A DNA stretch of 64,000 nt, taken from contig JADGBR010000003.1 of assembly GCA_015231405.1 (NCBI GenBank), forward strand, positions 93,549-157,548, given 5' to 3'. The notes below the pieces were generated by a model. That model ran no database searches. It was given only the letters and a program-made list of their open reading frames with translations, and was not told where the DNA came from. This DNA comes from Candidatus Omnitrophota bacterium (lineage in GTDB: Bacteria > Omnitrophota > Gorgyraeia > Tantalellales > Tantalellaceae). The first letter of the stretch is position 1, and each line of letters opens with the position of its first letter. Below are positions 25,364 through 53,476 of this stretch, piece by piece. The position numbers were made by a program, and so were the translations under genes.

Positions 25364-25534
25364 CAGATTGTGTCGCAATTCGAATATTAGCTCAATTCGT
25401 CATTGCGGGGAGTGAGCGACGAAGGAGCGAATGACGAAGCAATCCCTGTAAAAATAATTTATAGAGATTGCTTCGGGCACTTCGTGCCCTCGCAAAGACG
25501 GTCATTTTGTTGAAAATTGTTATTGTGACAAAGT
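25364..25534 (+). mobile_element. MITE-like nonautonomous element, copy 1 (3' terminal inverted repeat degenerate)
   Basis: 5' TIR cagattgtgtcgcaat; internal aattcgaatattagc; double-palindromic core (tcgtcattgcgggg..gacgaagcaatcc ... gattgcttcgggcacttcgtgccctcgcaaagacgg); 3' end ttgttattgtgacaaagt. It is alignable end to end with copies at 29590 and 36284. Confidence 0.75.
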
Positions 25535-25618
25535 ATGAGTGGCCAGTAAACAGATGCAATAAAGACAGGGCGTTTAACGCTCTGGTTACTATTTCGTAAC
25601 ATTTATGGAGGATGGAGC

Positions 25619-26791
25619 ATGTCTAAGAAGAAAGTAGTACTCGCGTATTCCGGCGGGCTCGACACATCAGTGGCGATACGCTGGCTGATGGATAAGGGGT
25701 ATGAGGTTATCTGCTACATGGCGGATGTCGGGCAGGGGGCGGATACTAAGGACGCCAGGGACAGGGCTTTTAAAATAGGGGCGAAAAAATGTTTCGTGGG
25801 CGACCTTAAGAAGAAGTTCGTCACGGATTACGTGTTTCCCGCGATCAAGGCCGGGGCGCTCTACCAGGGAAAGTACAACCTGGCGACAGCCCTTTCGAGG
25901 CCCATAATAGCCGACGCCATGGTCGAAGTCGCGAAAAAGGAAAAAGCCGATTTTGTCGCGCACGGCTGCACCGGTAAAGGCAATGACCAGGTCAGGTTCG
26001 AGGTGACGTTCCACGTTAAAGCGCCGGGTATCAAGGTGTTCGCTCCTGTACGCGAATGGGAGCTTAAAACCCGCGAGGATGAGATCGACTACGCGGCTAA
26101 AAAAGGTATCCCGATAAACCAGACAAAGAAGAAACTTTATTCCATAGACCACAACCTCTGGGGGATAAGCGTAGAAGGCGGCCCTCTCGAGGACCCGTGG
26201 CTGGAGCCGCTGGACAATACCTATGTATCCGTCGTGCCGCCGGAGAAGGCGCCGTCCAAGCCGGAATACGTGAGCGTCTCTTTTAAAAAAGGCGTACCGG
26301 TTGCTGTCAACGGAAAGACCATGGACCCGGTCGAGCTGATCATGAAACTGAATAAGATAGGCGCAAAACACTCACTCGGCAGGATAGACATGATAGAGGA
26401 CAGGTTGGTTGGTATCAAATCGCGCGAATTGTACGAAGCTCCCGCGTCGGCGATACTTTACGAAGCCCATACGGCGCTCGAGGAACTCGCGCTCGACAGG
26501 GAGACCAGGCGCTTCAAAAAAGGCGTTTCGGACTGTTATTCGGAGCTCGTGTATTACGGGCTTTGGTTCACTCCTCTTAAAGTCGCGCTGGACGCTTTCG
26601 TCGACGTCACACAGGAAAGGGTCACCGGTGAAGTGAGGATAAAGATGTATAAAGGTAAAGCCTCGGTAGCTTCGAGGAAAAGCCCGTTCTCGAGATATTC
26701 GAAGAAGCTGGCGACTTACGGCGAAGGCGACGTCTTCGACCAGTCGCTCGCGAAAGGATTTATAGACATTTGGGCAATGCCTTACAAATGA
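25619..26791 (+). CDS. argG: argininosuccinate synthase
   Basis: The N-terminal PP-loop is AYSGGLDTSV. The motif is AHGCTGKGNDQVRFE. The RBS is ggaggatggagc. Confidence 0.93.
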   Translation: MSKKKVVLAYSGGLDTSVAIRWLMDKGYEVICYMADVGQGADTKDARDRAFKIGAKKCFVGDLKKKFVTDYVFPAIKAGALYQGKYNLATALSRPIIADAMVEVAKKEKADFVAHGCTGKGNDQVRFEVTFHVKAPGIKVFAPVREWELKTREDEIDYAAKKGIPINQTKKKLYSIDHNLWGISVEGGPLEDPWLEPLDNTYVSVVPPEKAPSKPEYVSVSFKKGVPVAVNGKTMDPVELIMKLNKIGAKHSLGRIDMIEDRLVGIKSRELYEAPASAILYEAHTALEELALDRETRRFKKGVSDCYSELVYYGLWFTPLKVALDAFVDVTQERVTGEVRIKMYKGKASVASRKSPFSRYSKKLATYGEGDVFDQSLAKGFIDIWAMPYK

Positions 26792-26809
26792 GTAATGGGA
26801 TAAGCGTAA

Positions 26810-26873
26810 GGTCGAAGGTGGAAGGTCGAAGGTCGAGGGGCCATGGTCTATGGTCCATAGTCCATGGTCTGAC
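26810..26873. repeat. heptamer tandem repeat (ggtcgaa/ggtggaa x4) followed by a ggccatggtctatggtccatagtccatggtc palindrome
   Basis: Read directly between argG and argH. Confidence 0.8.
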
Positions 26874-26885
26874 AAGGAGGCTAAA

Positions 26886-28265
26886 ATGAGCGCGAAGCTG
26901 TGGGGCGGGCGTTTCCGGAAGGACTCGATGGACTCACTTGTCATGAAATTCACTTCCAGCCTCGATGTGGACAAGATCCTCTTGAAGTATGACTGTTTGA
27001 GCACAAAGGTCCATGTGGAGATGCTCGAGAAAACGGGATATGTCACCCCAAAAGAGAGAAAGGAGATAACCCGGGCTCTCGACCTCCTCATTAAAGACCA
27101 TGATAAGATACTCGCCGGCGTGAAAGGCTACGAGGATATACATTCTTTTGTCCAGGACTTCGTCGAGTCTAAGGCACCCCAGGCGGCGAAAAAAATGCAT
27201 ACGGGGAGGTCCAGGAACGAGCAGGTGGTCAACGACGTGAGGCTCTACTGTATGGAAGAGATAACGGCGATACGGCGCCTTATAGCGGAACTCGAGATGT
27301 CGCTGGTCGAACTCGCCGAGGAGAACATAAAGGTCATCATCCCGGGATACACCCACTTGAACCATGCCCAGCCGATACTTTTTTCGCATCTCGTTATGTC
27401 ATATGTCGAGATGCTTGAAAGGGACTCTTCGAGACTTCTGGACGCCAGGAAGCGCGTCGATATGTCAGTGATGGGTTCGGGCGCGATAGCCGGTTCCGCT
27501 CTCAGGCTGGACAGGGAGTTCACCGCCCGAAAGTCAGGTTTCAGCGGGATATCGGCCAATAGTATCGATTCGGTCAGTGACAGGGATTTTATTGTCGAGA
27601 TAGTCTCGGCGATAAGCATGCTGGGCGTGCATCTTTCGAGGATCAGCGAGGACTTCATCCTATATTCGACGGGCGAGTTCGGTTTTATAGACATAGGGGA
27701 AGAGTATTGTACCGGGAGCTCTCTCATGCCGCAGAAGAAAAATGCGGACGTACTTGAGCTGGCTAGGGGCCGATCATCGTTCTTTATAGGAGCGCTCGCT
27801 TCGCTCCTTACTCTTCTCAAGGGACTGCCGCACGCCTATAACAGGGACCTGCAGGAGGACAAGAGGCATCTTTTCGAGTCGGTCTCGGCCGTAAAGGACG
27901 AGCTCCTTGTTCTATCGAGGCTGGTCGGGACGATCACCGTGGAAGAGGCCGGCATCGCCGCGCAGATGGACGACGAGTTCCTTCTCTCGACCGACGTCGC
28001 CGAGTATCTGGTGGAAAAGGGCATGCCTTTTAGGGAAGCCCACGCGGTCGTGGGGGCCATGGTCAGGTATTGCATCGATAACGGCAAGGGATTTACCGGG
28101 CTGGATGTTCGAGAGCTCAAGGGGTTTTCGGAGGTTATCGGCGGCGACATATCCCGGATACTCAGCCACGAGTATTCCGTAAAGAACAAAAAAACGCCCG
28201 GCGGGACAAATCCCCGACATGTCGGGAAAGAGATAAAACGCTGGAAACGAAAACTGGAGATATAA
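26886..28265 (+). CDS. argH: argininosuccinate lyase
   Basis: It begins MSAKLWGGRF, and the fumarate lyase signature GSSLMPQKKN is present. The start is chosen at the ATG with RBS aaggagg rather than at the upstream ATG, which lies within the repeat. Confidence 0.93.
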   Translation: MSAKLWGGRFRKDSMDSLVMKFTSSLDVDKILLKYDCLSTKVHVEMLEKTGYVTPKERKEITRALDLLIKDHDKILAGVKGYEDIHSFVQDFVESKAPQAAKKMHTGRSRNEQVVNDVRLYCMEEITAIRRLIAELEMSLVELAEENIKVIIPGYTHLNHAQPILFSHLVMSYVEMLERDSSRLLDARKRVDMSVMGSGAIAGSALRLDREFTARKSGFSGISANSIDSVSDRDFIVEIVSAISMLGVHLSRISEDFILYSTGEFGFIDIGEEYCTGSSLMPQKKNADVLELARGRSSFFIGALASLLTLLKGLPHAYNRDLQEDKRHLFESVSAVKDELLVLSRLVGTITVEEAGIAAQMDDEFLLSTDVAEYLVEKGMPFREAHAVVGAMVRYCIDNGKGFTGLDVRELKGFSEVIGGDISRILSHEYSVKNKKTPGGTNPRHVGKEIKRWKRKLEI

Positions 28266-28268
28266 TTT

Positions 28269-29519
28269 ATGAATGACTTCACGTATAAGGACAACGCTCT
28301 GTATTGCGAGAACGTGCCTGTCAAGGCGATAGCGGATAAGTTCCCGACGCCGTTTTACCTGTACAGCTACGCCACATTTATGGACCATTTCAGGAAGATA
28401 AAAAAAGCTTTCGAAGCGGTAGATCCGCTTATCTGTTTTTCGATGAAGTCGAACTCGAATCTCAGTATAGCCAGAGCGCTGGTCAGGGAAGGGGCCGGGC
28501 TCGATATCGTTTCGGGAGGGGAGCTTTTCAAGGCTCTCAAGGTTGGGTGCCCCGCTGATAGGATAGTTTACGCGAGCGTTGGGAAGACCGAAGCGGAGAT
28601 AGAGTCCGCGATAAGGAGCAACATCCTTTTTTTTAACGTCGAGTCAGTGCCGGAACTTATCATGATAGACACCGTGTCGCGCAGGCTGAAAGAGAAGCCG
28701 AGGGTCGCTCTCAGGGTCAACCCGGACGTTTCGGCCGATACGCACGAATACATAACTACCGGAAAAAAGGAAAACAAGTTCGGGATAGATTTTACGACCG
28801 CCGAGGATATTTTCGATAACGAGAACAAGTACTCGAATGTAAGTCTTGAAGGCATACACGTACATATAGGCTCGCAGATAACCGATACCGAGCCTTTTGT
28901 GAAAGCGATATCGAAGGTGATAGAATTCCTGGAGAAGAGCGCCGTTTCCGTTAAGTGGCTCAATATAGGAGGCGGGTTCGGCATAACCTACGGCCAGGAG
29001 AAAGCCAAGACCGCGGAAGAATTCGCCTCCAGGATCATTCCGCTTGTAAAGGGTAAGGGGTTCAGGCTGATACTCGAGCCGGGCAGGTTCATCATAGGTA
29101 ACGCGGGTATACTGGTGGCGAAGGTGCTGTACATAAAGACAACTTCGGGTGGTAAACGTTTCGCGATAGTGAACGCCGGCATGAACGACCTTATAAGGCC
29201 GAGCCTGTATGACGCCTATCACGAAATAACGCCGGTAGTTAAGCTCCGGTCGGAAACGCACATGTATGATATAGTCGGCCCGATATGCGAAAGCGGGGAT
29301 TTTCTGGGCAAGAACAGGGAACTGCCGGAGCTTGTGGAGGACGAATATCTCGCTGTGATGTCGACCGGCGCTTACGGTTTCGCGATGGCGTCGAATTATA
29401 ATTCACGTCCGAGGCCGGCGGAGCTTCTGGTGAAGAACGGCAGGGTCAGGGTCATACGCCGCGCGGAGACGTATAAAGACCTGATCAGCTGCGAGAAGAT
29501 GCTTAAGGAGTTAAAGTAG
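28269..29519 (+). CDS. lysA: diaminopimelate decarboxylase
   Basis: A PLP-dependent decarboxylase of the alanine-racemase fold: FYLYS...CFSMKSN, HVHIGSQ, and GGGFGITY followed by the C-terminal beta-domain EPGR. Confidence 0.9.
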   Translation: MNDFTYKDNALYCENVPVKAIADKFPTPFYLYSYATFMDHFRKIKKAFEAVDPLICFSMKSNSNLSIARALVREGAGLDIVSGGELFKALKVGCPADRIVYASVGKTEAEIESAIRSNILFFNVESVPELIMIDTVSRRLKEKPRVALRVNPDVSADTHEYITTGKKENKFGIDFTTAEDIFDNENKYSNVSLEGIHVHIGSQITDTEPFVKAISKVIEFLEKSAVSVKWLNIGGGFGITYGQEKAKTAEEFASRIIPLVKGKGFRLILEPGRFIIGNAGILVAKVLYIKTTSGGKRFAIVNAGMNDLIRPSLYDAYHEITPVVKLRSETHMYDIVGPICESGDFLGKNRELPELVEDEYLAVMSTGAYGFAMASNYNSRPRPAELLVKNGRVRVIRRAETYKDLISCEKMLKELK

Positions 29520-29533
29520 GGACGACTGGTTTT

Positions 29534-29589
29534 GTGCACGGGTTTGGAAAAGTGCACGGGTGCACGTGTTCAACGTAGGGGAGGCCCTT
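29534..29589. repeat. intergenic repeats: gtgcacggg direct repeats, then gttcaacgtaggggaggcccttgcag (family shared with 32368 and 17111)
   Basis: Read directly after the lysA stop. Confidence 0.75.
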
Positions 29590-29767
29590 GCAGGCTGTGT
29601 CGCAATTCGAATATTAGCATAATTCGTCATTGCGAGGAGTGAGCGACGAAGGAGCGAACGACGAAGCAATCCCTGTGAAAATAATAAGTTACAGAGATTG
29701 CTTCGGGCACTTCATGCCCTCGCAATGACGGCCAATTTGTTCGAAATTGTTATTACGACACAGTCTG
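29590..29767 (+). mobile_element. MITE-like element, copy 2 (178 bp; TIRs caggctgtgtcgcaat / attacgacacagtctg)
   Basis: A full-length copy with the internal double palindrome. The ORF caller extended dapF into it (MLRALHALAMT...). Confidence 0.8.
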
Positions 29768-29793
29768 TTGTGGCCGCCCTTGACGAGGTAAAA

Positions 29794-30615
29794 ATGATAT
29801 TTAAATACAACATTAATTTCACAAAAGCAGTCGCGACGGGCAATGATTTTATCATTCTTGACGACAAAGACGGTAGGATCGGGAAGCGGAAGTTGGATTA
29901 TGCGGAGCTCGCCAGGGATCTTTGCAGGAGGAGCCTGTCGGTCGGGGCGGACGGGATACTGGTCCTTGAAGGCTCTAAAAAGTCCGATTTCAGGATGCGG
30001 ATATTCAATCCCGACGGGTCCGAGGCTGATATGTGCGGGAACGGCGCCAGGTGCAGCTCCATGTACGCGAGCCTGAACGGATGGGGGGATACTCTCAAGT
30101 TCGAGACCGGAGCCGGGATAATAAAAGCCGAGGTTAAAGGCGGTAATATCAAACTTAAAATGAGCGACCCGTCGGATATCAGGCTTGGGATCGCCATTGA
30201 TGTCCTGGGATGCAAACTTAAGATAAATTTCGTCAATACCGGAGTGCCTCACACTGTGGTCTTGGTCGAAGACTTGAATAGCTGCCAGGTGAAAGAGACC
30301 GGGCGCGCGATAAGGGAACATGCTTATTTTACCCCTGAGGGGACCAACGTGAATTTTGTCGAGGCCGAAGAGCGCGGGAAACACCGCGTGAGGACTTACG
30401 AGAGGGGCGTCGAGGATGAGACGCTGGCCTGCGGCACCGGGAGCGTGGCTTCGGCCATAATACTCTATCTTCGCGGGAAAGCCGTTTCGCCCGTAAAGAT
30501 GCTGACCAAAAGCGGTGAAACGCTTGTCGTCTGTTTTAGAAAGTCCGGGAAAAACCGGGTTAAAGATGTTTACCTGGAAGGTCCCGCGCAATTAGTTTAC
30601 GAAGGGAGGGTTTAG
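29794..30615 (+). CDS. dapF: diaminopimelate epimerase
   Basis: It starts MIFKYNINFTKAVATGNDFIILDD (the NDF motif). The catalytic Cys motifs are NPDGSEADMCGNGARC and GVEDETLACGTGSVA. The start is moved downstream of the MITE. Confidence 0.9.
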   Translation: MIFKYNINFTKAVATGNDFIILDDKDGRIGKRKLDYAELARDLCRRSLSVGADGILVLEGSKKSDFRMRIFNPDGSEADMCGNGARCSSMYASLNGWGDTLKFETGAGIIKAEVKGGNIKLKMSDPSDIRLGIAIDVLGCKLKINFVNTGVPHTVVLVEDLNSCQVKETGRAIREHAYFTPEGTNVNFVEAEERGKHRVRTYERGVEDETLACGTGSVASAIILYLRGKAVSPVKMLTKSGETLVVCFRKSGKNRVKDVYLEGPAQLVYEGRV

Positions 30616-30617
30616 TC

Positions 30618-31490
30618 ATGTTCAAGGGTTCATTTGTGGCGCTCGCTACGCCGTTCAAAAAGGGCAAAGTCGACGAAAAAGCGTACAGGGCGCTTATCGA
30701 GTTCCAGATAAAGAACGGCACCGACGGTATTGTGCCATGCGGTTGTACGGGCGAGGCCGCGACGCTTTCGATCGAGGAGCAGAAAAGCGTCATAAAAATA
30801 GCGCTTGAAACCATAGGTAAAAGGGCGAAGGTCGTGGCCGGTACCGGTTCGAATTGTACGCACGAGGCTATGGAACTGACGATGTTCGCTAAGAAAGCGG
30901 GTTGCGACGGTGCTCTCATCATAACCCCTTACTACAATAAGCCGACGCCTGAAGGACAGTACAGGCATTACAGGGATATAGCGGAGAAATCCCAGCTCCC
31001 GATAATGCTTTACAACGTGCCTTCGCGTACGGGACTTTGCCTTTCACCGGAAACGGTAGCTCGTTTATCCAAAGTCGAGAACATCGTCGCGATAAAGGAA
31101 GCGGCCGGCAGCGTTCAGCAGGTGATGGATATAATCTCGTTATGCGATATCACAGTAATGAGCGGGGACGACGCGATGACCCTCCCATTTATGGCGGTTG
31201 GGGCTATGGGCGTGGTAAGCGTTGTCGCTAATATCATCCCGGATAAAATACACAAGCTGACGAAAAACTATCTCGACGGAAAGATAGACTCAGCGAAGAA
31301 GGTCCATTACGAAATACTCGGACTCGTAAAGGCCATGTTCATCGAGACCAACCCGATACCTGTCAAGACGGCATTAAGCCTTATGGGCATGATCGGCGAG
31401 GAATGGCGTATGCCGCTCTGCGAGATGATGCCGGAGAACCGCGCGAAACTTCGTGATGTGCTTGTTAAGTATGGGCTTATTAGGAAGTGA
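30618..31490 (+). CDS. dapA: 4-hydroxy-tetrahydrodipicolinate synthase
   Basis: The DapA/NAL family is recognised from GSFVALATPF, GTDGIVPCGCTGEAATLS and the active-site Lys region VAIKEAAG. Confidence 0.9.
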   Translation: MFKGSFVALATPFKKGKVDEKAYRALIEFQIKNGTDGIVPCGCTGEAATLSIEEQKSVIKIALETIGKRAKVVAGTGSNCTHEAMELTMFAKKAGCDGALIITPYYNKPTPEGQYRHYRDIAEKSQLPIMLYNVPSRTGLCLSPETVARLSKVENIVAIKEAAGSVQQVMDIISLCDITVMSGDDAMTLPFMAVGAMGVVSVVANIIPDKIHKLTKNYLDGKIDSAKKVHYEILGLVKAMFIETNPIPVKTALSLMGMIGEEWRMPLCEMMPENRAKLRDVLVKYGLIRK

Positions 31491-31514
31491 AGAGTAAGAC
31501 CGGATTAAGAGAGC

Positions 31515-31607
31515 AATACTTCGTCATTGCGAGGAGCGACCGAAGGGAGAGACGAAGCAATCCAAATAGATTGCTTCGTTGGCCTTTGGCCTCCTCGCAA
31601 TGACGGG
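31515..31607. repeat. core-only variant of the MITE-like element (double palindrome without TIRs)
   Basis: As read: cttcgtcattgcgaggagcgaccgaagggagagacgaagcaatcc..gattgcttcgttggcctttggcctcctcgcaatgacggg. It sits between dapA and dapB. Confidence 0.7.
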
Positions 31608-31622
31608 AAATGGAGGTTGTAT

Positions 31623-32366: not shown

Positions 32367-32367
32367 T

Positions 32368-32452
32368 GTTCAACGTAGGGGCGGCCCTTGCATGTCCTCC
32401 GAAGCCGGATAATATCTATTGATTCGGCGAAGGAGGATGGCCGCCCTAAATA
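32368..32452. repeat. intergenic palindromic element gttcaacgtaggggcggcccttgca ... ggatggccgccctaaata with nested hairpins
   Basis: Read directly after the dapB stop. Confidence 0.7.
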
Positions 32453-32510
32453 AGGCGTTTCGTTGGATTGGGAACGCCATGCGTAATACGGTATATAAAA
32501 AAGGAGCCGA

Positions 32511-33680: not shown

Positions 33681-33685
33681 AGGTT

Positions 33686-33756
33686 CCGTGGGACGTGGGA
33701 CGTAGGACGTGGGACGAAAAGTTAACGTCCTACGTCCTACATCCCGTGTCCTACGG
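33686..33756. repeat. palindromic heptamer-repeat hairpin (gtgggac/gtaggac units mirrored around aaaagttaa)
   Basis: As read: ccgtgggacgtgggacgtaggacgtgggacgaaaagttaacgtcctacgtcctacatcccgtgtcctacgg. Confidence 0.85.
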
Positions 33757-33758
33757 TA

Positions 33759-34274
33759 ATGAATATGTCAAAAGTCTACTTATCGATAGGTTCGAACATC
33801 GGCGACAGGTACGAGAACTGTAACGAGGCGGTGCGCCTCGTAGGAGGGACCCAGGGGATAGAGATACAGAGAGTATCCTCTTTATACCTGACGAAGCCCG
33901 TGGGAGGTCCCCCGAACCAGCGGGAGTACATGAACGGTGTCGTAGAGATGGAAACCGTTCTTCTCCCCGAAGCGTGCCTTGACGTTCTCAAGGATATAGA
34001 GAAACAAATGGGCCGAACCCCAGCCGAAAAAGACCATCCGCGTATCATTGATATAGATATCTTATTCTATGACTCCCTGGTCATGGAAGAACCCGACCTC
34101 ATTATCCCGCATCCCGGAGCCCATACAAGGGAATTCGTTCTCAGGGGATTGAACGAGCTGGCTCCCGATATGGTTCACCCTTATATGGGAGCGACGATGG
34201 CGGAGTTATACGCTAGTGTCAAGGGAGAGAGTGAAGTGGGGAGTAGGCGGAGTAACGTGGGACGTACGACGTAG
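33759..34274 (+). CDS. folK: 2-amino-4-hydroxy-6-hydroxymethyldihydropteridine pyrophosphokinase
   Basis: HPPK motifs: VYLSIGSNIGDR, GPPNQREYMNGVVEMET, RIIDIDILFYD, PHPGAHTREFVL. The C-terminal codons run into the heptamer repeat. Confidence 0.88.
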   Translation: MNMSKVYLSIGSNIGDRYENCNEAVRLVGGTQGIEIQRVSSLYLTKPVGGPPNQREYMNGVVEMETVLLPEACLDVLKDIEKQMGRTPAEKDHPRIIDIDILFYDSLVMEEPDLIIPHPGAHTREFVLRGLNELAPDMVHPYMGATMAELYASVKGESEVGSRRSNVGRTT

Positions 34275-34307
34275 GACGTAGGACGTAGGACGTGGGACGT
34301 CCTATTT
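34254..34307 (+). repeat. tandem heptamer array (gtgggac/gtacgac/gtaggac x6) ending in the hairpin aggacgtgggacgtcct + T tract; a terminator-like element
   Basis: Read directly. It overlaps the folK stop and precedes panC. Confidence 0.75.
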
Positions 34308-34315
34308 TAAAAGTT

Positions 34316-35161: not shown

Positions 35162-35328
35162 TAGTTAGCGGTTGCTTGCGGTAGTTATAGAAATAGAAAT
35201 AGTAGGCGCGGACCCCCGTGTCCGCGCGTGAAAGAGATTAATCAACGAATTTATACCCCGGCACGGGGGCCGGGGTCTACTGTTTTTATTTTGTCCGACA
35301 ACCGACAACTGACGAGGAGGCATGACTG

Positions 35329-36264: not shown

Positions 36265-36283
36265 GAAGTGTATAGTAAGTAGT

Positions 36284-36460
36284 CAGACTGTGTAGCAATT
36301 CGAATATTAGCTTAATTCGTCATTGCGAGGAGTGAACGACGAAGGAGCGAATGACGAAGCAATCCCTGTAAAAACAATAAGTTACAGAGATTGCTTCGGG
36401 CACTTCGTGCCCTCGCAATGACGGCCAATTTGTTCAAAACTGTTATTGCGACACAGTCTG
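36284..36460 (+). mobile_element. MITE-like element, copy 3 (177 bp; TIRs cagactgtgtagcaat / attgcgacacagtctg)
   Basis: The best-preserved copy. Its 16-bp termini are perfect reverse complements apart from one mismatch. It lies between nadA and nadX. Confidence 0.85.
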
Positions 36461-36573
36461 AGTAAGGAGTAGGGAGTAAAGAGAAAATACGGGCTGTCCT
36501 TACAAACACGTCTGCAAATTTTACTGCATACTCCTTTCTGCCTACTGCATACTATTGTAAATGGGCTAAGAAT

Positions 36574-37386: not shown

Positions 37387-37448
37387 GGACGTCACCCGAT
37401 TAATTATTAATTCAACCTGGTAACATTCTGGTAACAGTAGTTACACCG

Positions 37449-37627
37449 ACAAGCTGGCCGGGACGTCTCGGCCAGGGACGTTCGGCCTGCTCCAGCGGCA
37501 GTCCTCACTCTCTGAGCTCGGTTTTACCGGAGGGATACGCACCGATAGGAACAGCGAATCCCTCCGGACCAAGCTAAAACCGAGCTCACAAGCCCTGGCC
37601 GAAACATCCCGGCCAGCTTGTTCAGCG
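37449..37627. other. about 180-nt highly structured element (candidate ncRNA, or a palindromic repeat) upstream of the giant gene
   Basis: The nested perfect helices are acaagctggccggga/tcccggccagcttgt (15 bp), cggccaggg/ccctggccg (9 bp), gagctcggtttta/taaaaccgagctc (13 bp) and ccggagggat/atccctccgg (10 bp). There is a 36-nt asymmetric internal loop and a 21-nt apical loop. The strand is undetermined. Confidence 0.35.
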
Positions 37628-46800: not shown

Positions 46801-49800
46801 GATGAGATAGACGCGATGAGTGCCGGACTGGTCGCGAAGGCCGGGCGAATGGTGTCGAAAGAGGTCCCTTCAAGAAGCGTAACGGGCGGAGCGGATATGC
46901 CCCGTCAAAAAGACATTGCATGCTATAAAACTGACGAATTCGAGGATGCTTTAGGTGCTCCTGTGGAAGAGAAAGCGTCCTTTTCTGATATGCCGGATGA
47001 CATGGAAGGGTTAATGGATGGAGAGAAATACTTCATGTATATTGAGCGGAATAAATACGCGGACGTCTTGAAAAATACGACTTTTAGACAAAAAGATAAA
47101 AGATTAAGCGAGCTGATCAATAAAATAGACCTGAAATGCAAAGTTAGCGGCATCAAGGTGTTTAAGGTCGGGAGCAAAGAGTGTATCGCTTATAGCGATT
47201 ATAACGGATGGTTAAGGATAATCGATTTCTCTACAGGGACGGTGCTGAACATAAAAGCCAATTCATCGATCATTTGCGGTATTTACAGCATGGAAATATT
47301 ACAACACGGAGATGAGACCGTCATAGTTACCTCCGGCGAGAAGAATAAACTTCGCAGATGGTCGATGACTGAAAAAGGGCTTACCGAAGGGAAAGTCACC
47401 GTCAGGAGTATGGATATATATACAGGGGAAATACCGATACGCAAAATGCGAAAGGGCGGGAAAGAATGTATCGTTGTCTGCGGAAGGGACAATACGATAA
47501 TGATCATTGAAGAGTTCGTTCAAGAAGATAATGCCGGGCGTGTAGTGGATAAGATAAAACGAACGATACTCGCGTCCAGGAATTGGCAGCTTAATCGTTT
47601 TTCTGTTTTGGAAGAGCTTGACGGTAACGACAGTATTGTCGCTTCTCATTCGACTCACACCGGGCAGCCTGACGGGGCTGACGCGTTGTGTCTGTGGAGT
47701 AATACCGGGGACGGATGGGATATGAAAATGATCGAGCCGGTGGATGGTTCGGGGAATGAAGTTAAAAGGCAAAATGATGTCCCGTTCATCGAGGGTGAAG
47801 AATGCCAGCTCCTGGACACGATATCGCTTTCCGGGGGTGGCAATAACTTGATAGTTACGGCTCCCAAGGATCCGGGCAATGAGATACTCGCTAAACATCT
47901 CAGGATATACAAAATGGACGGGAAAAGCGGTTGGGAAGTAATGAATTTATACGGTGTATTTGAAGGATACACAGCTCCCTCGGGACGTGATCTGATCGGA
48001 AAGGTTCAAAATGTGAAAACAGTCAAAGCCGGCGGGAGATCGTACGTTTTGATCAACGATATTCTTCAAAATCTGAGAGTTTGTGATTTTGCCTCGAATA
48101 CGGTCAGAATTTTGGAAATAGTCGATGAAGATCAGCTACATTGGAATTCAATAGTAGGAGCCGAGGGAATGGAGACGGGGGGATTATTAGTGACTTGTTC
48201 GAATGGAGGCGAACTGAAATTCTGGGACTTAAACCTTCAAGATAAAATAAAATACGAGAAAGTTGCCGTCGCGGCTGCGAAGTCGGGGTCGGGTGAGGGT
48301 GATGCCTTTCCTTCTCCTTCCGATGAAGCGTATCCCGAGATCGAGCTTCCGGAAGAGCCGGCTATTAACGAGACGCGTCTTGCGCTGAAACTTTCCGGGC
48401 GGGTGCTGCTTATCGCGCAGCCGGGGGCTAGGGAGAAGGTTATCGTTGATGAATCGGCGAAGCGCGAAGGGATAAAGGACGTGTATTCCATTGAAGGCAG
48501 TCCGTCGCTCACCGTTTTCGATATGTTCGGCGGGCTTTTTCCTCTGCTTGAGGGTGAGGAAAGGCCGTCCGGGGAGGATCTGGTCTTTAAAAAAGGATTT
48601 TTCACAAGGCACATGATCACCGAGGAGGAATATCTTAGGGATTACGGCGAGGATGACGAGCCCCGGCTTCTTGTCATACACAATATTGACGCCGTGCCCG
48701 AGAAAGTCAGGGCGGCGGTCAATAATCTTCTCCTTAACGGCTTCATAGAGATACCCGGCGAGGGTGAGAACGGCCGGCTTTATCTTCCGGAGAACATAAA
48801 GATCATAGCCACGATAAACGCTAACAGCCAGCGGGATTTCTCGAGCGCTTTCCCAAACAGGTTTACCCGGGTCAACGCATCGGAAATGGAAACGTCGCCT
48901 TACTGGCTTAGCCAGTTCGTTCAATATGTGATGAGGGTTTACGGGTTCGATAATGAGCTGGCCGGAAGCATCGAGATGGTGCATTGCATGATAAAAAGGC
49001 TGGAGGACGGAGGCAGTTTCTGGCCTTCGGGTTACGTGTACGGGTTCACGGTCAAAGACGCTTTGACGGCGGCGAAATTCATTTCGCTCGGGCTAAAAGA
49101 AAGGGCAATGTTAGGGCAGGCTGTTACTAAGAAGGATGAGACGGAAATAGCCGTAAGGGAGATCATCAGGGCTTACGGTTTACGTCTTAAACAGAGCGAT
49201 AAAGATTATGACAATTTTGTGGACCTGATCCTGAAGAGGATATTCGACCACGATAAAGATATGGTCGACGCCGTTTCGGGCGAGATAAGGATATCCGGCG
49301 GGAAATTGTCATCCATATCGGATATCCCGGTGAACCCGACCCAGAAAGGTAAACACCCGTACGCGATAGACAAGAATTACAGGCTGACCATGGTGAAAAG
49401 CATCGTCCGTACCATATCCGGCGTTCTACGCGGATTCCAGGCCGGGAAGATCGTCTCCCTGACCGGCGAAACCGGCGTCGCCAAGACCACGATAGGAGTC
49501 GCGCTCGCTGAAAGCCTGGGGATGGATAGCTATGTCTTCAGCATGCATAAAGATGTTAAGTCTTACGATTTTACGGCAGGTATCAGGGCGACAGATGCCG
49601 GTCAGTACCGGCTTGACTTGTCGGATTTCGCCGAAAAATTAAAGTCCGGGAACACCGTCCTTGTTGTCGACGAAGCTAACATTAAACCCGAGATATTATG
49701 GATACTCTCAGGGATCGCCCGCGGCGAGAGGAAATTCTCCATCGAAGTGCCCGGAGAAAAGCCTATAGAATTCCGGCTCGGAGATAACATATATATCCTC

Positions 49801-52800
49801 TTTACGATGAATCCCGAGGATTACGAAGGCGGAAGGGATATCATCCCACAGCCTGTCAAGGAGGATATATTCAATATATGGGCCCCGTCGGAGTATCCGG
49901 ACCCGGAGCTTACGGCGATCGTCAACGAGTTCTTCGACGGGTATAGCGTTCTTGATAATATTAAGGAGGAAAAAAAGAAGGAAGAGATAGAAGGCATGGA
50001 TCTGGACGAGAGGATGCTCCGGCTTTTCAAATACTTGCGCCATGGCTACGCTCTTACGACCATAGAGGATATCGTCGCCTCTATAGAAGAGAAAGGTTTT
50101 AAGGCCGCGCTTATGGAATATCTCGCTGTAAAGCCGGCGGACGATACTAGAGAGGCTAAAAAAGCGGCAAGGAAAGAGGCCAAGGCGCGAAGAATAGAGC
50201 TCAAATCTATCGAGAAAGAAATGCTGGAACGCGGCGAGGTCAAAACGAAGATGGACAAAATAAGGTTCCTCGTCAAATCCTCATGGGATATTCAGAAAGA
50301 CTTGAACGACGAGGACGAGGTCGAGATAAAATTCAGTCTATTCACGTGGTGGAGCACGACGGTCGTGGAAAGGACGCGCGCCGGAGGGAGGGTTAAGGTC
50401 CGGGTAATTTATGTGCCTTTATATGAGCTTGTGAAGAGGAAGGGCGAGCCGGGAGCCGCACCAAAAGAGAAAAGCGAGGGGGTCATTGCCGCGGTTATTC
50501 TTCACGAGTTCAGGCACAAACTGTACTCACCCAGGTCCGAAGAATATCGGGATGAGATCAAACCGTTGTTGGAGGGGTCTCTTACCCCCGAAGAAATGGA
50601 GTTTTTCGCAAATCTTACCCGAGAGAAACAGAAGATCGACGGCGAGTTCATGGGGTTTGATAACCTGATCGAGGATATAAGGATAAATAACATAGAGAAC
50701 CCGAGACTGAAAGGGGAAAAAAGGCTTTTTAACGCGCTCTTGGAACATCAGTACGGGAATATCCTTGTTCCGGAGCCGGATATGCTCCCGAATATATTTG
50801 AGCGGGCGCAAATGGCGCCGCATACATTACTGCACGATGATCTTCTCGCCTATGGCGCTTTCGGACGGCACAGCTGGTATTTTGATTCGCTTCCGGACGA
50901 GCTAAGGGAGGATATAAGGAGCTTGACCGACGGCCCGGATTCTCCGGTTTACAGGGCTACACTCCATAGATCGGTAAAACCGGATCTCACAGGCGTCAAA
51001 AGTCACTTCGATATGAAAAAAGAAAAACTGAGAGCCGAGGCTGAACGGATCAAAGTTTTTCTTAAGGAGATAAACCCGGTTTTCCAGAAATGGCTTAAAA
51101 GAGCCGCGGAGGCCCCCAAAGATGGAGAAGCCGGCAAGGGAGGCGCGGGCGGAGCCCAGGGAGTGCCTTCGTTCATAGACCTCCCTCCGGAGTTCGCGGA
51201 TATGTTCGATAAGCCTGAAGGCGGCGAGGGAGAGGAAGGGTCAGAAGGCGGATCCAGCGTGAATATCGTGGGTGAGGATGGATCCCGGGAGGAATTAGGT
51301 GAGGGTGATGGGGAGGGGGCCGAAGAAGGCGAAGCGGATGGAACGGAAACCCCCGGAGGAATAGAAGAAGCTACTCCTTCCGCCGGTAACCCTGACCATA
51401 CTGAAGAAGGTGAAAAAGCCTCGGGCTCCGCAAAGCCGCCGCTACCCGGTGAAGGCGGCGAGGAGCCTTCGAGAGGCGACAAGTTCGACAAGAGCGTTAA
51501 GGATATCGAGAAGAAAAGGAAGGAAGAGCTTAAACAGGAGCCTTTCAACGAGCGTTTGACGGAAGTGAGTGAGGTGGCGAAAAGGCTGGCCAAAGGGTTT
51601 ATAAATATTTTCCGCGTGCCGGGCGAGCCGGATGTTGAGGAGACCCCCTTCGGCCGCATTATAAACGCCGTGCGTTATATCATCGGCAGCAATGTTCCGT
51701 TCGACGAAGACGCCGATACTTTGGGCGCGCCCGACCTCGCGTTCGGCATGACTATCGACGCGAGCGGAAGCATGGTAGACGCTTACCCGGCGCTTAAACG
51801 CCTGAGCGCTATACTCTTATCCGCTTTTCAGCAGATAGGTAATAAGGCGGAACTGTCCATCACGATGGATAATAAGGAAGTATCGACCATAAAAAGTTTC
51901 AGCCAGAAATTCAAGCAGGAACACCTTAACGCCATGCAGACAAAAATAGAGGATAAAATAGGGGAGGGCGGTAACGGCATACATCTCTACGACACGATGA
52001 TGGAGATAATCAATAAGTATAAAGGGTGCAGGAAGAATAATAAGCTGGAGGTGATATTTACCGACGCGGGCGATACGGGTAAGGATCTGTACCTGGATCG
52101 TGGCGGGAAATTGTGCTGCACCGAAAGGCTGGACGAAGCTTTCAAAAAAGCGAAAAGCATGGGGATAACTATTATCGGCGTAGGTTTTGGCGACAGTTAT
52201 GTCGAGGTTTTTGATAGTTACCTTAACCTCAATAAGGACAATGTCGACGCCATAGTCGGCGCGATGCTATCCATAGGGAGCGTCAAAGCCAAAACCGGTA
52301 AAGTCCCGTCGGGTGACCTTTCGGAAGTACTTGACCTCGGGAAAAGCGGGACTTTGAAAAGCGGGGCATCCGGGAGATCAAGGCTTTCGGGGGAAAGGAA
52401 ATATACGGTCGTAAAGATGAGCGAAGCGCCGAAAGCGAATAATTTATCCGAAACTCGTAACTTATCGACGACTGTCTCCCCGCGGACAAAGGCTATGTCC
52501 GAACTATGGAAGAACATGACAAGGGATATAGTCATCCTTCCCGAGACCGAACTTTACACTTCCGACGAAATGGGCGCGAGGAAAAACGCTAGAGTACTCG
52601 ATAAAAAATACGCTCAGACCACCGTTACGTTCGGGTACGCCTATAACGGTGATTGGAAAAATAACCTGAAGGGCGTAATGGAGAAAGCAAAAGAACAGCT
52701 ATCCGGAGACCTCGCGAAGGGTGATTCCAAGACCAGGGCGATAGTGTATGTGCCGGAAGAGGCTGACGGTGATCTCATGGAAGCCATGTTCGGCGAGCTG

Positions 52801-53139
52801 GAGATCGGAGAAACGCTTAAGGAAAGAATTACCGTCGTCAGGGAAAGAAACCTTGAGAATGATATCCCCATCGAGGTCGCGCGGCATATAACCCTCGGCA
52901 AGGTCCTCCTTAACTATGAAAGGTTCAGAAAAAAAGATTTCGATATAGAGATGAACGCCGGAGAAATATCCGCCCTTATAGGCATGGTGAGAGACGCTGT
53001 AAAAGGTCACGGGAATATAACTCTCGCCTTCGTAGAGGAACTAGTTAAAGGCCTCGCCGTATTTGAGGCTGAAAAGTTCGCCTTCACGACAATAACCGAC
53101 TGGAAAGCGCGCGAAGAGAAGTTCATTAAGTCGGTGTAA
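37825..53139 (+). CDS. giant midasin/MoxR-like protein: signal/anchor + about 1000-aa N-terminal region + six AAA_5-type ATPase modules (three active, three degenerate) + WD40-like beta-propellers + D/E-rich tract + C-terminal VWA (MIDAS) domain
   Basis: The ORF is uninterrupted for 15.3 kb. The N-terminus is MNNFNKQLILRIISLSTAIVFLFQSTVYG. The Walker A motifs are GVTGAGKT (nt 41875), GAPGGGKT (nt 44185) and GETGVAKT (nt 49465), with Walker B IFDEG and VVDEAN. Dynein/midasin-type sensor segments are ...LNGEMRVPG...NLRIIATM, FHIIITMNPAED and IYILFTMNPEDY. The acidic tract is nt 51190-51480. The MIDAS motif is DASGSM...TDAGDTG (nt 51757). Confidence 0.85.
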   Translation: MNNFNKQLILRIISLSTAIVFLFQSTVYGEAPAITERSIEKIIIPGELASVKSSSFTGGGDIIVHIQDAHCDLNGQLAISKILEYLEKRYALKDIYLEGGSGGYDLSIFKSIADTGVRRQVSEKFLAMGEISAAEYYAVNADIAPLLQGVEDPELYIRNLDVYRGSKLYRDKALEIVNAAGKRLDELKTRIMGKELLELETKYAAYSNDSLKIRDYLAYLFVAAAKTGCDIGGLPEGISRLKSVLDSEEKVNFGKAEIDREKLLGILLARLPETRKEDLVRMVVAFKRGEISGAEFYGYLTKRAEESGVDVSSQMKDLVAYAGYVRDYAEIDRSSIMDGIEALKTAISEKFITRDEERTLIRLDEGFGMIKKIFNFSVTSSEYKKALSMDIAEMYGELEALNGKGENSVDAPELKDYFDRIKPFYEHSLRRDEVFIGNIPSGNKGSAPRVIALVTGGFHSENLYELFKKRGFSYISVIPEFSISEGENRYFDILSGEQCGLSKRISAAVSSLQVASKLNLGLGTKIWGERGIEDFEAALYTEALAESGYRVEITDESTGEVVFSNGDEKNTLIKIGKNRFLSDVHQEFIDKVMTEDEKNYRDLNPMERSAAERAVRDIIAIMPDTTTQDRSARSSVEGLLGVKALTGKEGIRVSLKLEESRRDGHAGGWGIRIREELTDEDAVYKVIRHEILAGLLRNHSMVGAVEGFMDTDETQSARAFMADAENRHEGMNALWDIEDNARHNIERDHSTKGGEKEIKDEDVREILAERKFLEPSEREELVRFIMGFHKDYDKYLSVMRSNSPDPARYKISIREIKRFAVEVERIFKKVLSEKETRVEALSVARGQSLFNVYLDFVAGDEIVEANRRTGYKFPDVELGVWSQNLITSYGAADRYYVDGLARKGEQFDTNIFQNTERKLGYALESGMPSLFIKNDNSLGAFEQALSKYVSENNAELHSMQCTPYSDTTQLLGGYVPRERVNKGEAYKIIEGIIGDDAEIRGILEKLLSREPLDKEIRDFKELYAKKEADGLIIAAAMVKKNPDNWRKKLVYEKGLLARIIEKCNKEGGKTFILNLENVEALPGRVRAQLNTFLLNGEMRVPGADSEEMRKLVMPSNLRIIATMGEGSVLEDGAFYDRFVRKSVGECDPGDLREAIERDYPGFPESVVKLLIITYHKFREKGIECTARDFLNISGYVYGRAKNGSVQKMFKAAVEEIIGYFTVRDENRYSFTDYAVEIEAAAENSFDANFLRKVGPSIREMDPFEIKIEYSKGRKELVVNGIGLPVRKEMGSAMQGVIDAMNKASEGLPEELAIKQALVDELDFVLTKDSKKMLWAVARAYKYGNGFVCLEGVTGAGKTYTAEMLSKLIDFKRPQGESRFYSEPVDAQTKISRYVGMFRTDEYGYYSLDKTTPFLDIIENGGVAAISEMNTAVKDDYAKLGWWFNQFARGDEVISLTEYPGYGPLGAMSRTVKRNPRCIVIVDINPEDYEARGKLPEELRSYAQRVSVSKTENKDDLEFAAWAFLKQITDDRKRWAIAKQLALYHQALEAEVIAANGRGERHPPLSFRELKRICKGVNNDSDVFAAIKDVRALIGKYYIPAFRSKEKQAELRDQFGIKDYSPEKVVEELILAPAGERSPPAMVFTSAEDDPMAELDTITKDKDMVTVEKTLITLFIDEFKLLGGYVPVSNDLTPEKAAERIGVYSKEAPENIGYLGELFQEIAQKPLPADLEQLTHPEVLSLAAALDSLRNGRDWREKLRWERGIIPRLMKEARENPTRTYILALENFHRIRPGVAVALNSILQEGEYYDPVSKKKETVPPNLRFYATAIEEAELPISMAEESRWVRIHKGMKTQGEKKSELIEYARKLVLEKINAGELQFVGNYSPIGFTRSEQALTVSETIVSSIGDEFLELFNVPQHKEYIDSVINQAFSEGPVTTSERWIYAQRMSKYLVYGAAMKASDKAEHFEKGKPSLCPRLSEKDQDINLYAIKMSKRRMEWRIYAEFIELFDRNFFDYISEIKDMMSMPDILACVDGIIEEYAEYHESLKPGMVIGNYDLLQKISLRQINKYISRNCFDNNLADKTPMAGSTANLLEEVDELVEIEAATFQAFKNGKVVIYEGAPGGGKTDMGIDVANRMGLKNFVYSCHGRVHSSDLLGGFRQDKRGNFIFTGEPDDAGNFKYNPFLQMLTHGGVFIFDEGAIGKRSQELLSLLSGIARGDKDFFVNELPGKPARKLEVHKDFHIIITMNPAEDTPGREPLPLELYNHARRIWVPGKMSEESYRKIITRFFKDACARNKVNPEDIFASNEKSRKMFSDLITEIHFIINEMVGESVSLEESTNLHLLTLRDMKKLVKDFVKLYAAGVDKTEALRLAIRTEYLSQFDARSDRNLIKLRLDGTFLGAGKKEMADQFQTEKIYLGTVISTMGKPVDPETLKLIDRKRQKQGELQTPGMRTEKPLSPFEPGNVARLPGDVLKKPARFAKDWREINGDPGIDQGRERGTVEVAEEKSLALFDRFSPTDGEAVYWKETAKDRIATPQTVVPLEGPGELPADLDTRMAFEQKAFTYSETVPEIIAGKLGEGKGVMNALYSEWSITELYKTLKIGDKRVTGIEVIEIGGEECLVTSAGKAVQVWRKTPSGWDVTTLLGSTRGINVLRTIKRGGKTCIVTGSVSGLVMMWEPDGGGWKATRLYGYAGNDVTALAVMRRVVDGEEKECLVTGGSDGKIYLYEEGKDGWGYTCFKVGSEPILSLEVMKFKDKGNSIVAAGGYGTVKALYSPGGNDWAGEYVFSERWSTGSFICPDKTENGTFFTSGYVDNVTDMSGVWRFEPGATDNAGVIYDAHAKGAVRDMKGFGLNGENMYVSAGLDGRIILWKEAKEKPASGEQPSLMPINVLFEKEDVKFNKLLVTDIEIGGKSRKCVLAGTTTGEVMIFNLEQEKYIEENKRRLAPEDPEAALPVPEKPELPYGLGEEAIFRPTEFADAGRIFDREITGDEIDAMSAGLVAKAGRMVSKEVPSRSVTGGADMPRQKDIACYKTDEFEDALGAPVEEKASFSDMPDDMEGLMDGEKYFMYIERNKYADVLKNTTFRQKDKRLSELINKIDLKCKVSGIKVFKVGSKECIAYSDYNGWLRIIDFSTGTVLNIKANSSIICGIYSMEILQHGDETVIVTSGEKNKLRRWSMTEKGLTEGKVTVRSMDIYTGEIPIRKMRKGGKECIVVCGRDNTIMIIEEFVQEDNAGRVVDKIKRTILASRNWQLNRFSVLEELDGNDSIVASHSTHTGQPDGADALCLWSNTGDGWDMKMIEPVDGSGNEVKRQNDVPFIEGEECQLLDTISLSGGGNNLIVTAPKDPGNEILAKHLRIYKMDGKSGWEVMNLYGVFEGYTAPSGRDLIGKVQNVKTVKAGGRSYVLINDILQNLRVCDFASNTVRILEIVDEDQLHWNSIVGAEGMETGGLLVTCSNGGELKFWDLNLQDKIKYEKVAVAAAKSGSGEGDAFPSPSDEAYPEIELPEEPAINETRLALKLSGRVLLIAQPGAREKVIVDESAKREGIKDVYSIEGSPSLTVFDMFGGLFPLLEGEERPSGEDLVFKKGFFTRHMITEEEYLRDYGEDDEPRLLVIHNIDAVPEKVRAAVNNLLLNGFIEIPGEGENGRLYLPENIKIIATINANSQRDFSSAFPNRFTRVNASEMETSPYWLSQFVQYVMRVYGFDNELAGSIEMVHCMIKRLEDGGSFWPSGYVYGFTVKDALTAAKFISLGLKERAMLGQAVTKKDETEIAVREIIRAYGLRLKQSDKDYDNFVDLILKRIFDHDKDMVDAVSGEIRISGGKLSSISDIPVNPTQKGKHPYAIDKNYRLTMVKSIVRTISGVLRGFQAGKIVSLTGETGVAKTTIGVALAESLGMDSYVFSMHKDVKSYDFTAGIRATDAGQYRLDLSDFAEKLKSGNTVLVVDEANIKPEILWILSGIARGERKFSIEVPGEKPIEFRLGDNIYILFTMNPEDYEGGRDIIPQPVKEDIFNIWAPSEYPDPELTAIVNEFFDGYSVLDNIKEEKKKEEIEGMDLDERMLRLFKYLRHGYALTTIEDIVASIEEKGFKAALMEYLAVKPADDTREAKKAARKEAKARRIELKSIEKEMLERGEVKTKMDKIRFLVKSSWDIQKDLNDEDEVEIKFSLFTWWSTTVVERTRAGGRVKVRVIYVPLYELVKRKGEPGAAPKEKSEGVIAAVILHEFRHKLYSPRSEEYRDEIKPLLEGSLTPEEMEFFANLTREKQKIDGEFMGFDNLIEDIRINNIENPRLKGEKRLFNALLEHQYGNILVPEPDMLPNIFERAQMAPHTLLHDDLLAYGAFGRHSWYFDSLPDELREDIRSLTDGPDSPVYRATLHRSVKPDLTGVKSHFDMKKEKLRAEAERIKVFLKEINPVFQKWLKRAAEAPKDGEAGKGGAGGAQGVPSFIDLPPEFADMFDKPEGGEGEEGSEGGSSVNIVGEDGSREELGEGDGEGAEEGEADGTETPGGIEEATPSAGNPDHTEEGEKASGSAKPPLPGEGGEEPSRGDKFDKSVKDIEKKRKEELKQEPFNERLTEVSEVAKRLAKGFINIFRVPGEPDVEETPFGRIINAVRYIIGSNVPFDEDADTLGAPDLAFGMTIDASGSMVDAYPALKRLSAILLSAFQQIGNKAELSITMDNKEVSTIKSFSQKFKQEHLNAMQTKIEDKIGEGGNGIHLYDTMMEIINKYKGCRKNNKLEVIFTDAGDTGKDLYLDRGGKLCCTERLDEAFKKAKSMGITIIGVGFGDSYVEVFDSYLNLNKDNVDAIVGAMLSIGSVKAKTGKVPSGDLSEVLDLGKSGTLKSGASGRSRLSGERKYTVVKMSEAPKANNLSETRNLSTTVSPRTKAMSELWKNMTRDIVILPETELYTSDEMGARKNARVLDKKYAQTTVTFGYAYNGDWKNNLKGVMEKAKEQLSGDLAKGDSKTRAIVYVPEEADGDLMEAMFGELEIGETLKERITVVRERNLENDIPIEVARHITLGKVLLNYERFRKKDFDIEMNAGEISALIGMVRDAVKGHGNITLAFVEELVKGLAVFEAEKFAFTTITDWKAREEKFIKSV

Positions 53140-53143
53140 CGAC

Positions 53144-53205
53144 GGGACTGTGGACCCTAGACTATGGACCATGGACAATAGTCCGGCGTCCGGGTCAGCC
53201 GACCC
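53144..53205. repeat. ggaccatgg-type palindrome (gggactgtggaccctagactatggaccatggacaatagtcc) plus a small GC hairpin
   Basis: Read directly after the giant gene's stop. Confidence 0.75.
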
Positions 53206-53216
53206 GATCGCGGCAA

Positions 53217-53476
53217 GACTTACAATAACGGTTTTGGACAAACTGGCCGTAGAAACGAAGGCACGAAGTGCCCGTGGACAAAGGCCCGTCAAAGCGAAGG
53301 TACGAATTGCCTGTGAACAAATTGGACGTCATTGCGAGGGCACGCCTGCCTGCCGGCAGGCAGGAAGTGCCCGAAGCAATCTCTGTAAAAATAGCAATTC
53401 ACAGGGATTGCTTCGTCGTTCACTCCTTCGTCGCTCACTCCTCGCAATGACGGATCAAGCTAATATTTGAATTATG
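53217..53476 (-). mobile_element. MITE-like element, copy 4, inverted and rearranged (internal partial duplications and a cctgcctgccggcaggcagg insertion)
   Basis: It ends attatgacacagtctg, the reverse complement of the 5' TIR. Its core is the reverse complement of the other copies. A spurious 106-aa ORF lies inside it. Confidence 0.75.

Follow-up and report, generated by a model that had tools for sequence, protein, structure and literature searches.

What are the repeats of about 177 base pairs (bp) that sit between genes of the biosynthetic operons in a 64,000-nucleotide (nt) stretch of a Candidatus Omnitrophota genome? We call this whole stretch, from contig JADGBR010000003.1, the window, and give all positions in its numbering; loci from other genomes used for comparison bear L-numbers. 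A preliminary description had read the repeats as miniature inverted-repeat transposable elements (MITEs), either recently mobile or under strong selection as punctuation of transcripts. The explanation that we favor, at a probability of about 0.7, is a two-layer, non-coding selfish element, in which a pair of CGTC-tagged units is carried inside a shell moved by a transposase. The repeat class of the core, that of CGTC-tagged repetitive extragenic palindromes (REPs) and of the motifs of Ssn nucleases, is known; what is new is that such a pair lies inside a small element that is bounded by terminal repeats and flanked by target duplications.

Copies of the element in the window

The elements, their flanking triplets and their parts are located as follows.

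25364-25537, plus strand: copy 1, in the argF/argG gap, partly decayed; AGT at 25361-25363 and 25538-25540
29591-29767, plus strand: copy 2, in the lysA/dapF gap; TTG at 29588-29590 and 29768-29770
36284-36460, plus strand: copy 3, in the nadA/nadX gap; AGT at 36281-36283 and 36461-36463
53214-53486, minus strand: copy 4, 273 bp, inverted and rearranged, between a gene of 5112 amino acids (aa) and one of 1781 aa
31522-31605, plus strand: core-only element in the dapA/dapB gap, an inverted CGTC-tagged pair without the terminal-repeat shell
22219-22254, minus strand: complete single CGTC-tagged unit, CGTC ATTGCGA GGGCACGAAGTGCCC GAAGCAAT CC
36284-36299 and 36445-36460: terminal inverted repeats of copy 3
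36318-36365, plus strand: left core unit of copy 3, with CGTC tag, ATTGC..GCAAT stem and long insert
25398-25445 and 29625-29672: equivalents of the left core unit in copies 1 and 2; 53405-53452, minus strand, in copy 4
36388-36423, minus strand: right core unit of copy 3, reading CGTC ATTGCGA GGGCAC-GAA-GTGCCC GAAGCAAT C on that strand
25465-25500 and 29695-29730: equivalents of the right core unit in copies 1 and 2; 53327-53382, plus strand, in copy 4

The three full copies first proposed are confirmed, with the end of copy 1 moved from 25534 to 25537. Copy 4 is indeed inverted and rearranged, over a slightly wider extent than had been noted, and the core-only copy also stands. The sequence at 22219-22254, previously taken for a fragment, proves to be a whole hairpin unit, which abuts the argJ stop codon directly. 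Flanking genes were identified with NCBIfam (argJ/argB, argF/argG, lysA/dapF, dapA/dapB and nadA/nadX), which bears out the placement in operon gaps first suggested for the last four pairs. All copies occupy short gaps between co-directional genes, and five of the six share the same orientation relative to transcription. The 16-nt terminal repeat CAGACTGTGTCGCAAT is found in the window 7 times at no more than 3 mismatches, against 0.15 expected, and the core string CCTCGCAATGACG 11 times, against 1.6 expected.

Copies 2 and 3 are 94% identical and the remaining pairs 87-91%, so that the early estimate of a divergence of only a few percent was too low. Copy 1 is decayed: its right terminal repeat has become CATACTTTGTCACAAT, extending to 25537, and its core units have mutated to GCGGGG and GCAAAGACG. 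These changes are uncompensated and hit both terminal repeats and both core units, breaking the pairing. In copy 4, the distal terminus is decayed, a subterminal segment is duplicated, and the mini-hairpin holds a 20-nt palindromic insertion. The core-only element carries hairpins, CCGAAGG and GGCCAAAGGCC, that are unlike the variable hairpins of the other copies. Mechanically called open reading frames that run through the elements give false N-terminal extensions (MLRALRALAMT or MLRALHALAMT) on argB and dapF, as had been reported; the extension of dapB, for which the same peptide had been claimed, has a different sequence.

A shell around an inverted pair of units

The element consists of two layers, an outer shell of about 35 bp on each side and an inner inverted pair of units. 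The shell ends in the 16-bp inverted repeat CAGACTGTGTCGCAAT, the two arms of which can pair at 12-15 of their 16 positions, depending on the copy; such terminal inverted repeats are a feature of MITEs. Inside, the two units face each other with their CGTC tags outward. Each unit reads, in order, (C/T)GTC, ATTGC, GA, a variable perfect mini-hairpin, GAA, GCAAT and C; one such unit written as a single-stranded oligonucleotide is CGTCATTGCGAGGGCACGAAGTGCCCGAAGCAATC. The CGTC tag and the C directly after the stem are present in nine of nine window units. Among 464 sampled units, most of which were recovered with patterns fixing part of the conserved sequence (the nine window units were not), the tag is CGTC in 355 and TGTC in 83. 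The tags-outward arrangement is seen in all five paired copies, in each of which a spacer of 6-24 nt separates two unlike units; the insert of the left core unit holds a 15-nt tandem duplication (AGGAGCGAACGACGA, 2.1 times).

The stem of the unit is only 5 bp long (ATTGC/GCAAT) and is followed by a GA/GAA internal loop and then by a second hairpin of variable length. The variable insert was found in 157 distinct versions, of which 103 fold into perfect hairpins, where shuffling predicts about 6; the stems have 40 different sequences. The second stem thus appears to be conserved as a structure, and the tag, first stem and internal loop as a sequence. When folded as single-stranded DNA, a single unit presents a free 4-nt tag and then a two-part hairpin, with the same outline as the Neisseria repeat NTS. 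The whole element pairs end to end: its predicted RNA fold has an energy of -73 and -80 kcal/mol on the two strands (z = -8 and -11), and its single-stranded DNA fold one of -45 kcal/mol (z = -8.5).

Evidence for insertion

Target-site duplications, which the preliminary description had proposed to look for, are found at all three intact copies in the window: direct repeats of a constant 3 bp, as expected for a MITE, flank copy 1 (AGT), copy 2 (TTG) and copy 3 (AGT). Removing each copy with one of its repeats restores a local structure. At copy 1 this is the heptamer register AACCAGT GGCCAGT. At copy 3 it is the register AGTAAGT AGTAAGG AGTAGGG AGTAAAG, in an array that has an inverse heptamer array 60 nt downstream. 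At copy 2 it is a small GC-rich palindrome, GGGGAGGCC..GGCCGCCC, in the loop of which the copy sat; this palindrome is related to a repeat at 32367-32392. Further, three related Omnitrophota genomes (DapF 61-63% identical) share the gene order of the region, and their corresponding junctions overlap or are 4-30 bp long. Since these syntenic junctions are tight, the large gaps of the window are insertions. Taken with the terminal inverted repeats, the 3-bp repeats and the restored sites argue that the 177-bp unit behaves as a small non-autonomous transposable element.

The junctions of the region are also rich in other repeats. A second repeat, GTTCAACGTAGGGG(A/C)GGCCCTTGCA, lies at 29563-29590 and 32367-32392 and begins a palindromic element in the dapB/aminotransferase gap; copy 2 has inserted into a short version of it. 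Many operon junctions are filled with heptamers in tandem (for example ACGTAGG, CCATGGT, AAGGTCG and GAGTAAG), and an inverse array, which would allow a hairpin to form, often follows. These arrays are found at the following positions.

20939-20991, 23194-23222, 26808-26869 and 33687-33755: heptamer arrays
34255-34300, 36460-36553, 53151-53176 and 60418-60441: heptamer arrays

The related genome L122 has arrays of the same kind built from other heptamers, and at L147 a core pair lies between inverted heptamer arrays.

How far does the likeness to bacterial MITEs go? The size, the terminal inverted repeats, the 3-bp flanking duplication and the presence of several intergenic copies are all shared. 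The interior of the 177-bp element, however, is a repeat of another class and not a deleted transposase gene, and no parent insertion sequence with its ends was found in the window, in species genomes, in metagenomes or in viral contigs. The first identification as a MITE thus holds for the terminal repeats and duplications and fails for the core, which is REP-like. Cores without terminal repeats, which had been named in advance as a sign of a REP-like repeat, do occur at 31522-31605, at 22219-22254 and at hundreds of places in other phyla; the 177-bp unit with its shell nevertheless remains MITE-like.

CGTC-tagged repeats and Ssn nucleases

Two lines of published work bear on the core. Di Nocera, De Gregorio and Rocco (2013, PMC3733652) describe CGTC-tagged REPs with a free CGTC tag, stems starting with AT and a CCA tail. 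These repeats are mostly tags-outward dimers, found mainly in Alphaproteobacteria and, in the words of that description, with 'no dedicated transposase'; some dimer families are embedded in longer palindromes, of which empty versions were not found. The window units resemble CGTC REPs in their unpaired CGTC/TGTC tag at one end, in a stem that starts A-T, T-A, in a short C-rich tail (CCA in the unit at 31522), in forming predominantly tags-outward heterodimers whose short spacers have complementary ends, and in their place between co-directional genes, where units reach up to stop codons. The family CGTC-1 of H. neapolitanus is even a dimer embedded in a longer palindrome, as the window core is. 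The described stems, however, are of 8-9 bp with a loop of 4-5 nt, whereas those of the window are split and of 5 bp; the five phyla reported in the description exclude Omnitrophota; and the outer palindrome of the window element differs from those described in ending in defined terminal repeats with target duplications.

More recently, Chenal (2025, PMC11893778) reported that the Neisseria repeat NTS (CGTCATTCCCGCGMAVGCGGGAATCYRG) and related motifs (SRM) flank genes for GIY-YIG Ssn proteins of about 94 aa. In Neisseria and other species, Ssn was shown to bind the hairpin solely as single-stranded DNA and to make its cut a few bases upstream; cutting and binding depend critically on the GTC that precedes the hairpin and on the C that follows. 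The protein does not bind RNA, and the activity shown for it is cutting alone (PMC11893778). Window units likewise have GTC just 5' and C just 3' of the hairpin (nine of nine), and units of this ATTGCGA type likewise form a hairpin in single-stranded DNA. In other genomes they flank GIY-YIG genes of about 95 aa (cd10448-type) on both sides in an arrangement similar to that of an insertion sequence (IS), as NTS/SRM repeats do.

Such bracketed genes, whose proteins match Pfam GIY-YIG, were found at L140, L164, L197, L199/L058, L198, L173 and L167. The gene fills the space between units almost exactly (for example ...GAAGCAATCTCTAA-gene-TAGAGATTGCTTC...), and the L197 protein is 43% identical to a gonococcal SsnA homologue (E = 3e-30). 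When 14 GIY-YIG homologues were picked by protein similarity alone (2 from viral records, 12 from plasmid or chromid records), hairpins tagged CGTC, TGTC or CCTC flanked 12-13 of them, with stems differing by lineage. As judged from sequence, then, the core combines two CGTC-tagged REP units, or NTS/SRM-class repeats, which belong to a known repeat class. Because the same units bracket an ssn-like gene elsewhere, the most fitting interpretation of the gene-less pair in the window is that it is a miniaturized unit-ssn-unit element. We infer from these parallels that units of the window's type would be bound and cut by an Ssn-family nuclease.

The published SRM motif, HGTCWYN(0-2)YYVSBRHN(0-5)WNVSBRGN(0-2)RNCYNB, misses canonical ATTGCGA-type units, whereas the Neisseria NTS used as a control matches. 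The ATTGCGA-type units are thus a variant outside the census of Chenal (2025), where gene-less pairs nested in a target-duplicating shell with terminal repeats are also missing (PMC11893778).

In addition, ssn-like GIY-YIG genes with flanking hairpins stand directly after sufB in Azospirillum lipoferum (L205) and Shinella sp. (L211). The Azospirillum gene lies between sufB and sufC. Their position suggests a shared or recurrent insertion site.

The core in other genomes

The distribution of the core is far wider than that of the shell. The pattern GATTGCTTCG-N(0-30)-CCTCGCAATGACG matched at least 120 viral contigs, in high-GC and low-GC DNA alike. The canonical form is CGTCATTGCGAG-CGAAG-CGAAGCAATCC, a loop of about 20 nt and then GGATTGCTTCG-hairpin-CCTCGCAATGACG; it is present on plasmids or chromids of Novosphingobium, Methylosinus, Methylocystis, Methylobacterium, Aulosira, Halomonas and Legionella, that is, in Alphaproteobacteria, Gammaproteobacteria and Cyanobacteria. 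A search with the 35-nt right arm of the window, leaving 3 loop bases free, returned 73 stretches from metagenome-assembled genomes (MAGs) of five phyla (Omnitrophota, Planctomycetota, Chloroflexota, Nitrospirota and Auribacterota), with near-identical arms. One of the related genomes, L123, has a core-only pair in the argG/argH gap. The whole element found no match among plasmids, and a literature search by sequence strings returned chance primer matches only.

A second composite is present in the Caldilineae MAG JBBIHX01 (L127-L192). The loci examined there hold roughly 35-40 copies of an element of about 150 bp, which is bounded by 12-nt terminal inverted repeats (GANTCGGTTYCA...TGGAACCGANTC) in a shell unrelated to that of the window and carries the same unit pair inside. 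Of 25 scored copies, 13 are flanked by perfect repeats, which measure 8-12 bp and in most cases 8-9 bp. This is an independent composite of the unit pair in a different shell. Shell-only (empty) copies were seen neither in the window nor among the Caldilineae loci.

Partial units (…GCCCTCGCAATGACG) are also found tandemly repeated outside a complete unit, at L126, L138, L155, L159, L191, L194 and L197. Their spacers are 11-12 nt in the clearest cases, and the short arrays adjoin the pair or the ssn gene.

From both composites a broader hypothesis can be framed, which we hold only tentatively and consider rather less probable than its negation: that ATTGCGA-type units form a major class of Ssn targets, uncatalogued because the published motif misses it, which is exchanged between distant phyla and whose pairs come to lie repeatedly inside unrelated transposons. 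Pairs might home into the hairpin loops of transposons with terminal repeats, or transposons might gain from carrying a nuclease target.

Selfish insertion or other explanations

In the mechanism that we favor, the inner layer would be a gene-less unit pair, derived by miniaturization from a unit-ssn-unit element, the units of which, when single-stranded, would be targets of small Ssn-family GIY-YIG nucleases that bind them and cut a few bases upstream. The outer layer would have made of it a 177-bp unit that inserted at least three times, each time with a 3-bp target duplication. Such a duplication is the trace that a transposase, here presumably supplied in trans, leaves after cut-and-paste or copy-in. 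Copies would have come to occupy junctions of the conserved arg-lys-dap-pan-nad gene string because insertions are tolerated there, and would decay after insertion.

Several observations weigh against this mechanism. Neither a transposase nor an ssn gene is present in the window, and the published SRM motif has no match there. The shell-bearing copies that we examined are four in number and all lie inside the window; the pattern of the left shell end with its subterminal sequence had no match in 185,579 species genomes. Within the terminal repeat, TCGCAAT, its inner 7 nt, is at the same time the stem sequence of the core unit, and before it stands TGTT, which is similar to a TGTC tag; the shell may therefore be derived from a unit instead of being a transposase binding site. 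Copy 4 shows no clean 3-bp duplication, and AGT is the duplicated triplet in two of the three cases, both inside heptamer arrays where AGT recurs, so that a target preference could mimic duplication.

Other searches for the shell gave isolated signals. In metagenomes, the end pattern had one solo match, L121, which is probably unrelated, and in viral contigs the terminal repeat alone had 11 solo matches in coding-like DNA, none of them paired. A paired shell was found in no other genome searched (species genomes, metagenomes, viral contigs), and neither was the cognate transposase with matching terminal repeats that the MITE interpretation had called for. In another Omnitrophota MAG, L142, the sequence CAGACTGTGTCACAAT lies beside a core pair on one side and has no partner opposite; as a paired shell it was therefore rejected. 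The shell ends are presumably a little like those of the IS5 family (CTGT..GCAA), with which a 3-bp duplication would fit; we take this as a lead only.

The missing transposase and the unit-like ends would both be explained if the 177-bp sequence were one long hairpin of the REPIN type, moved as a single strand by an Ssn-type nuclease or another single-strand enzyme, with the 'terminal inverted repeats' as its outermost stem and no DDE-type transposase involved. The very stable end-to-end fold and the one-sided L142 sequence fit this idea, as does the description of REP pairs in longer palindromes without an empty target (PMC3733652). REPINs (Bertels and Rainey 2011, PMC3116915) are likewise non-autonomous and made of two inverted hairpins with a short spacer, which form a larger hairpin, and the repeat stands on both sides of the single-copy gene that goes with them, as in unit-ssn-unit loci. 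They differ in having GTAG-type tags and a Y1 (IS200-like) transposase where the present units have CGTC and a GIY-YIG nuclease. REPINs and single-strand 'peel and paste' elements make no target duplications, whereas all three intact copies have them, and removal of the element restores the local structure. For Ssn, moreover, cutting alone has been shown, and not joining (PMC11893778), and the Caldilineae composite has classic duplications of 8-9 bp. We therefore regard a single long hairpin as unlikely.

Could the elements instead be selected RNA punctuation, that is, processing sites, stabilizers or attenuators setting the relative expression of neighboring genes? Their confinement to short gaps between co-directional genes, mostly in one orientation, would be expected, the RNA hairpin is very stable, and REPs elsewhere, according to the description by Di Nocera et al., lie downstream of reading frames and were proposed to act as RNA (PMC3733652). 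Junctions of the same operon in relatives also carry other small repeats. Where present, however, these belong to unrelated families, and the same junctions in relatives otherwise overlap or span a few bases, working without any such element. The mutations of copy 1 are uncompensated and break the pairing. No terminator-like site or T-run coincides with any copy, and the 21 terminator-like sites of the region are no excess over the 16.7 expected from shuffles; a terminator or promoter role was rejected on these grounds. Rfam gave no match at gathering thresholds in the whole window or in 11 loci with canonical units, and none of relevance at E <= 1 on 22-37 kb. Nor does Ssn bind RNA (PMC11893778). 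The strong selection first invoked thus finds no backing here: the tight junctions tolerated in relatives and the decay of copy 1 favor selfish insertion, which is most likely the nature of these elements, and we consider a selected punctuation role improbable, even more so than the single long hairpin. A secondary effect is possible: as the elements would be transcribed within operons and form very stable hairpins, they may affect operon mRNA.

That the source is a MAG might raise the suspicion of an assembly or binning artefact, or of chance similarity. The copies diverge from one another by 6-13%, each is surrounded by unique genes in syntenic order, and motif counts are far above those of shuffles, which makes such an artefact extremely improbable.

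Other repeats and genes of the region

A short repeat of the GTGCACGGGT type is found at 23131-23185 (argB/argD gap) and 29534-29562 (lysA/dapF gap), and an array of 18-nt period at 3717-3948 has at least 9 GGATCGGGAACCGGAGTC-like copies. In L122, a different palindromic repeat (…GAAGTTCCGGGGACACGC…GCATGTCCCCGGAATATAC…) lies at 11900-12070, 14620-14800 and 17804-18058 of that locus, in junctions of the same gene string. Upstream of the 5112-aa gene, at 37449-37621, three nested inverted repeats, with outer arms of 29 nt that are 93% complementary, together form a hairpin of about 170 nt. The segment 37801-58939, with the genes of 5112 aa and 1781 aa (DUF11, FecR and porin-like domains), is an insertion relative to L123 and L124, where nadX is directly followed by an IMPDH-like gene and/or dnaE.

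Implications

The element explains a very common kind of 'hypothetical protein' artefact in metagenome annotations (...LRALAMT..., ...RNDG..., VIASEAKQS), as well as false N-terminal extensions of real genes. It also extends the nuclease-repeat system of Ssn, described in 2025, to candidate phyla and to a unit shape missed by the published search motif. A concrete and testable case is now available, in which a pair of nuclease-target hairpins lies inside two unrelated small transposons, and which bears on how CGTC-type repeats multiply. If the broader hypothesis were true, a single-strand GIY-YIG nuclease system and a duplication-making transposase system would travel as one unit.

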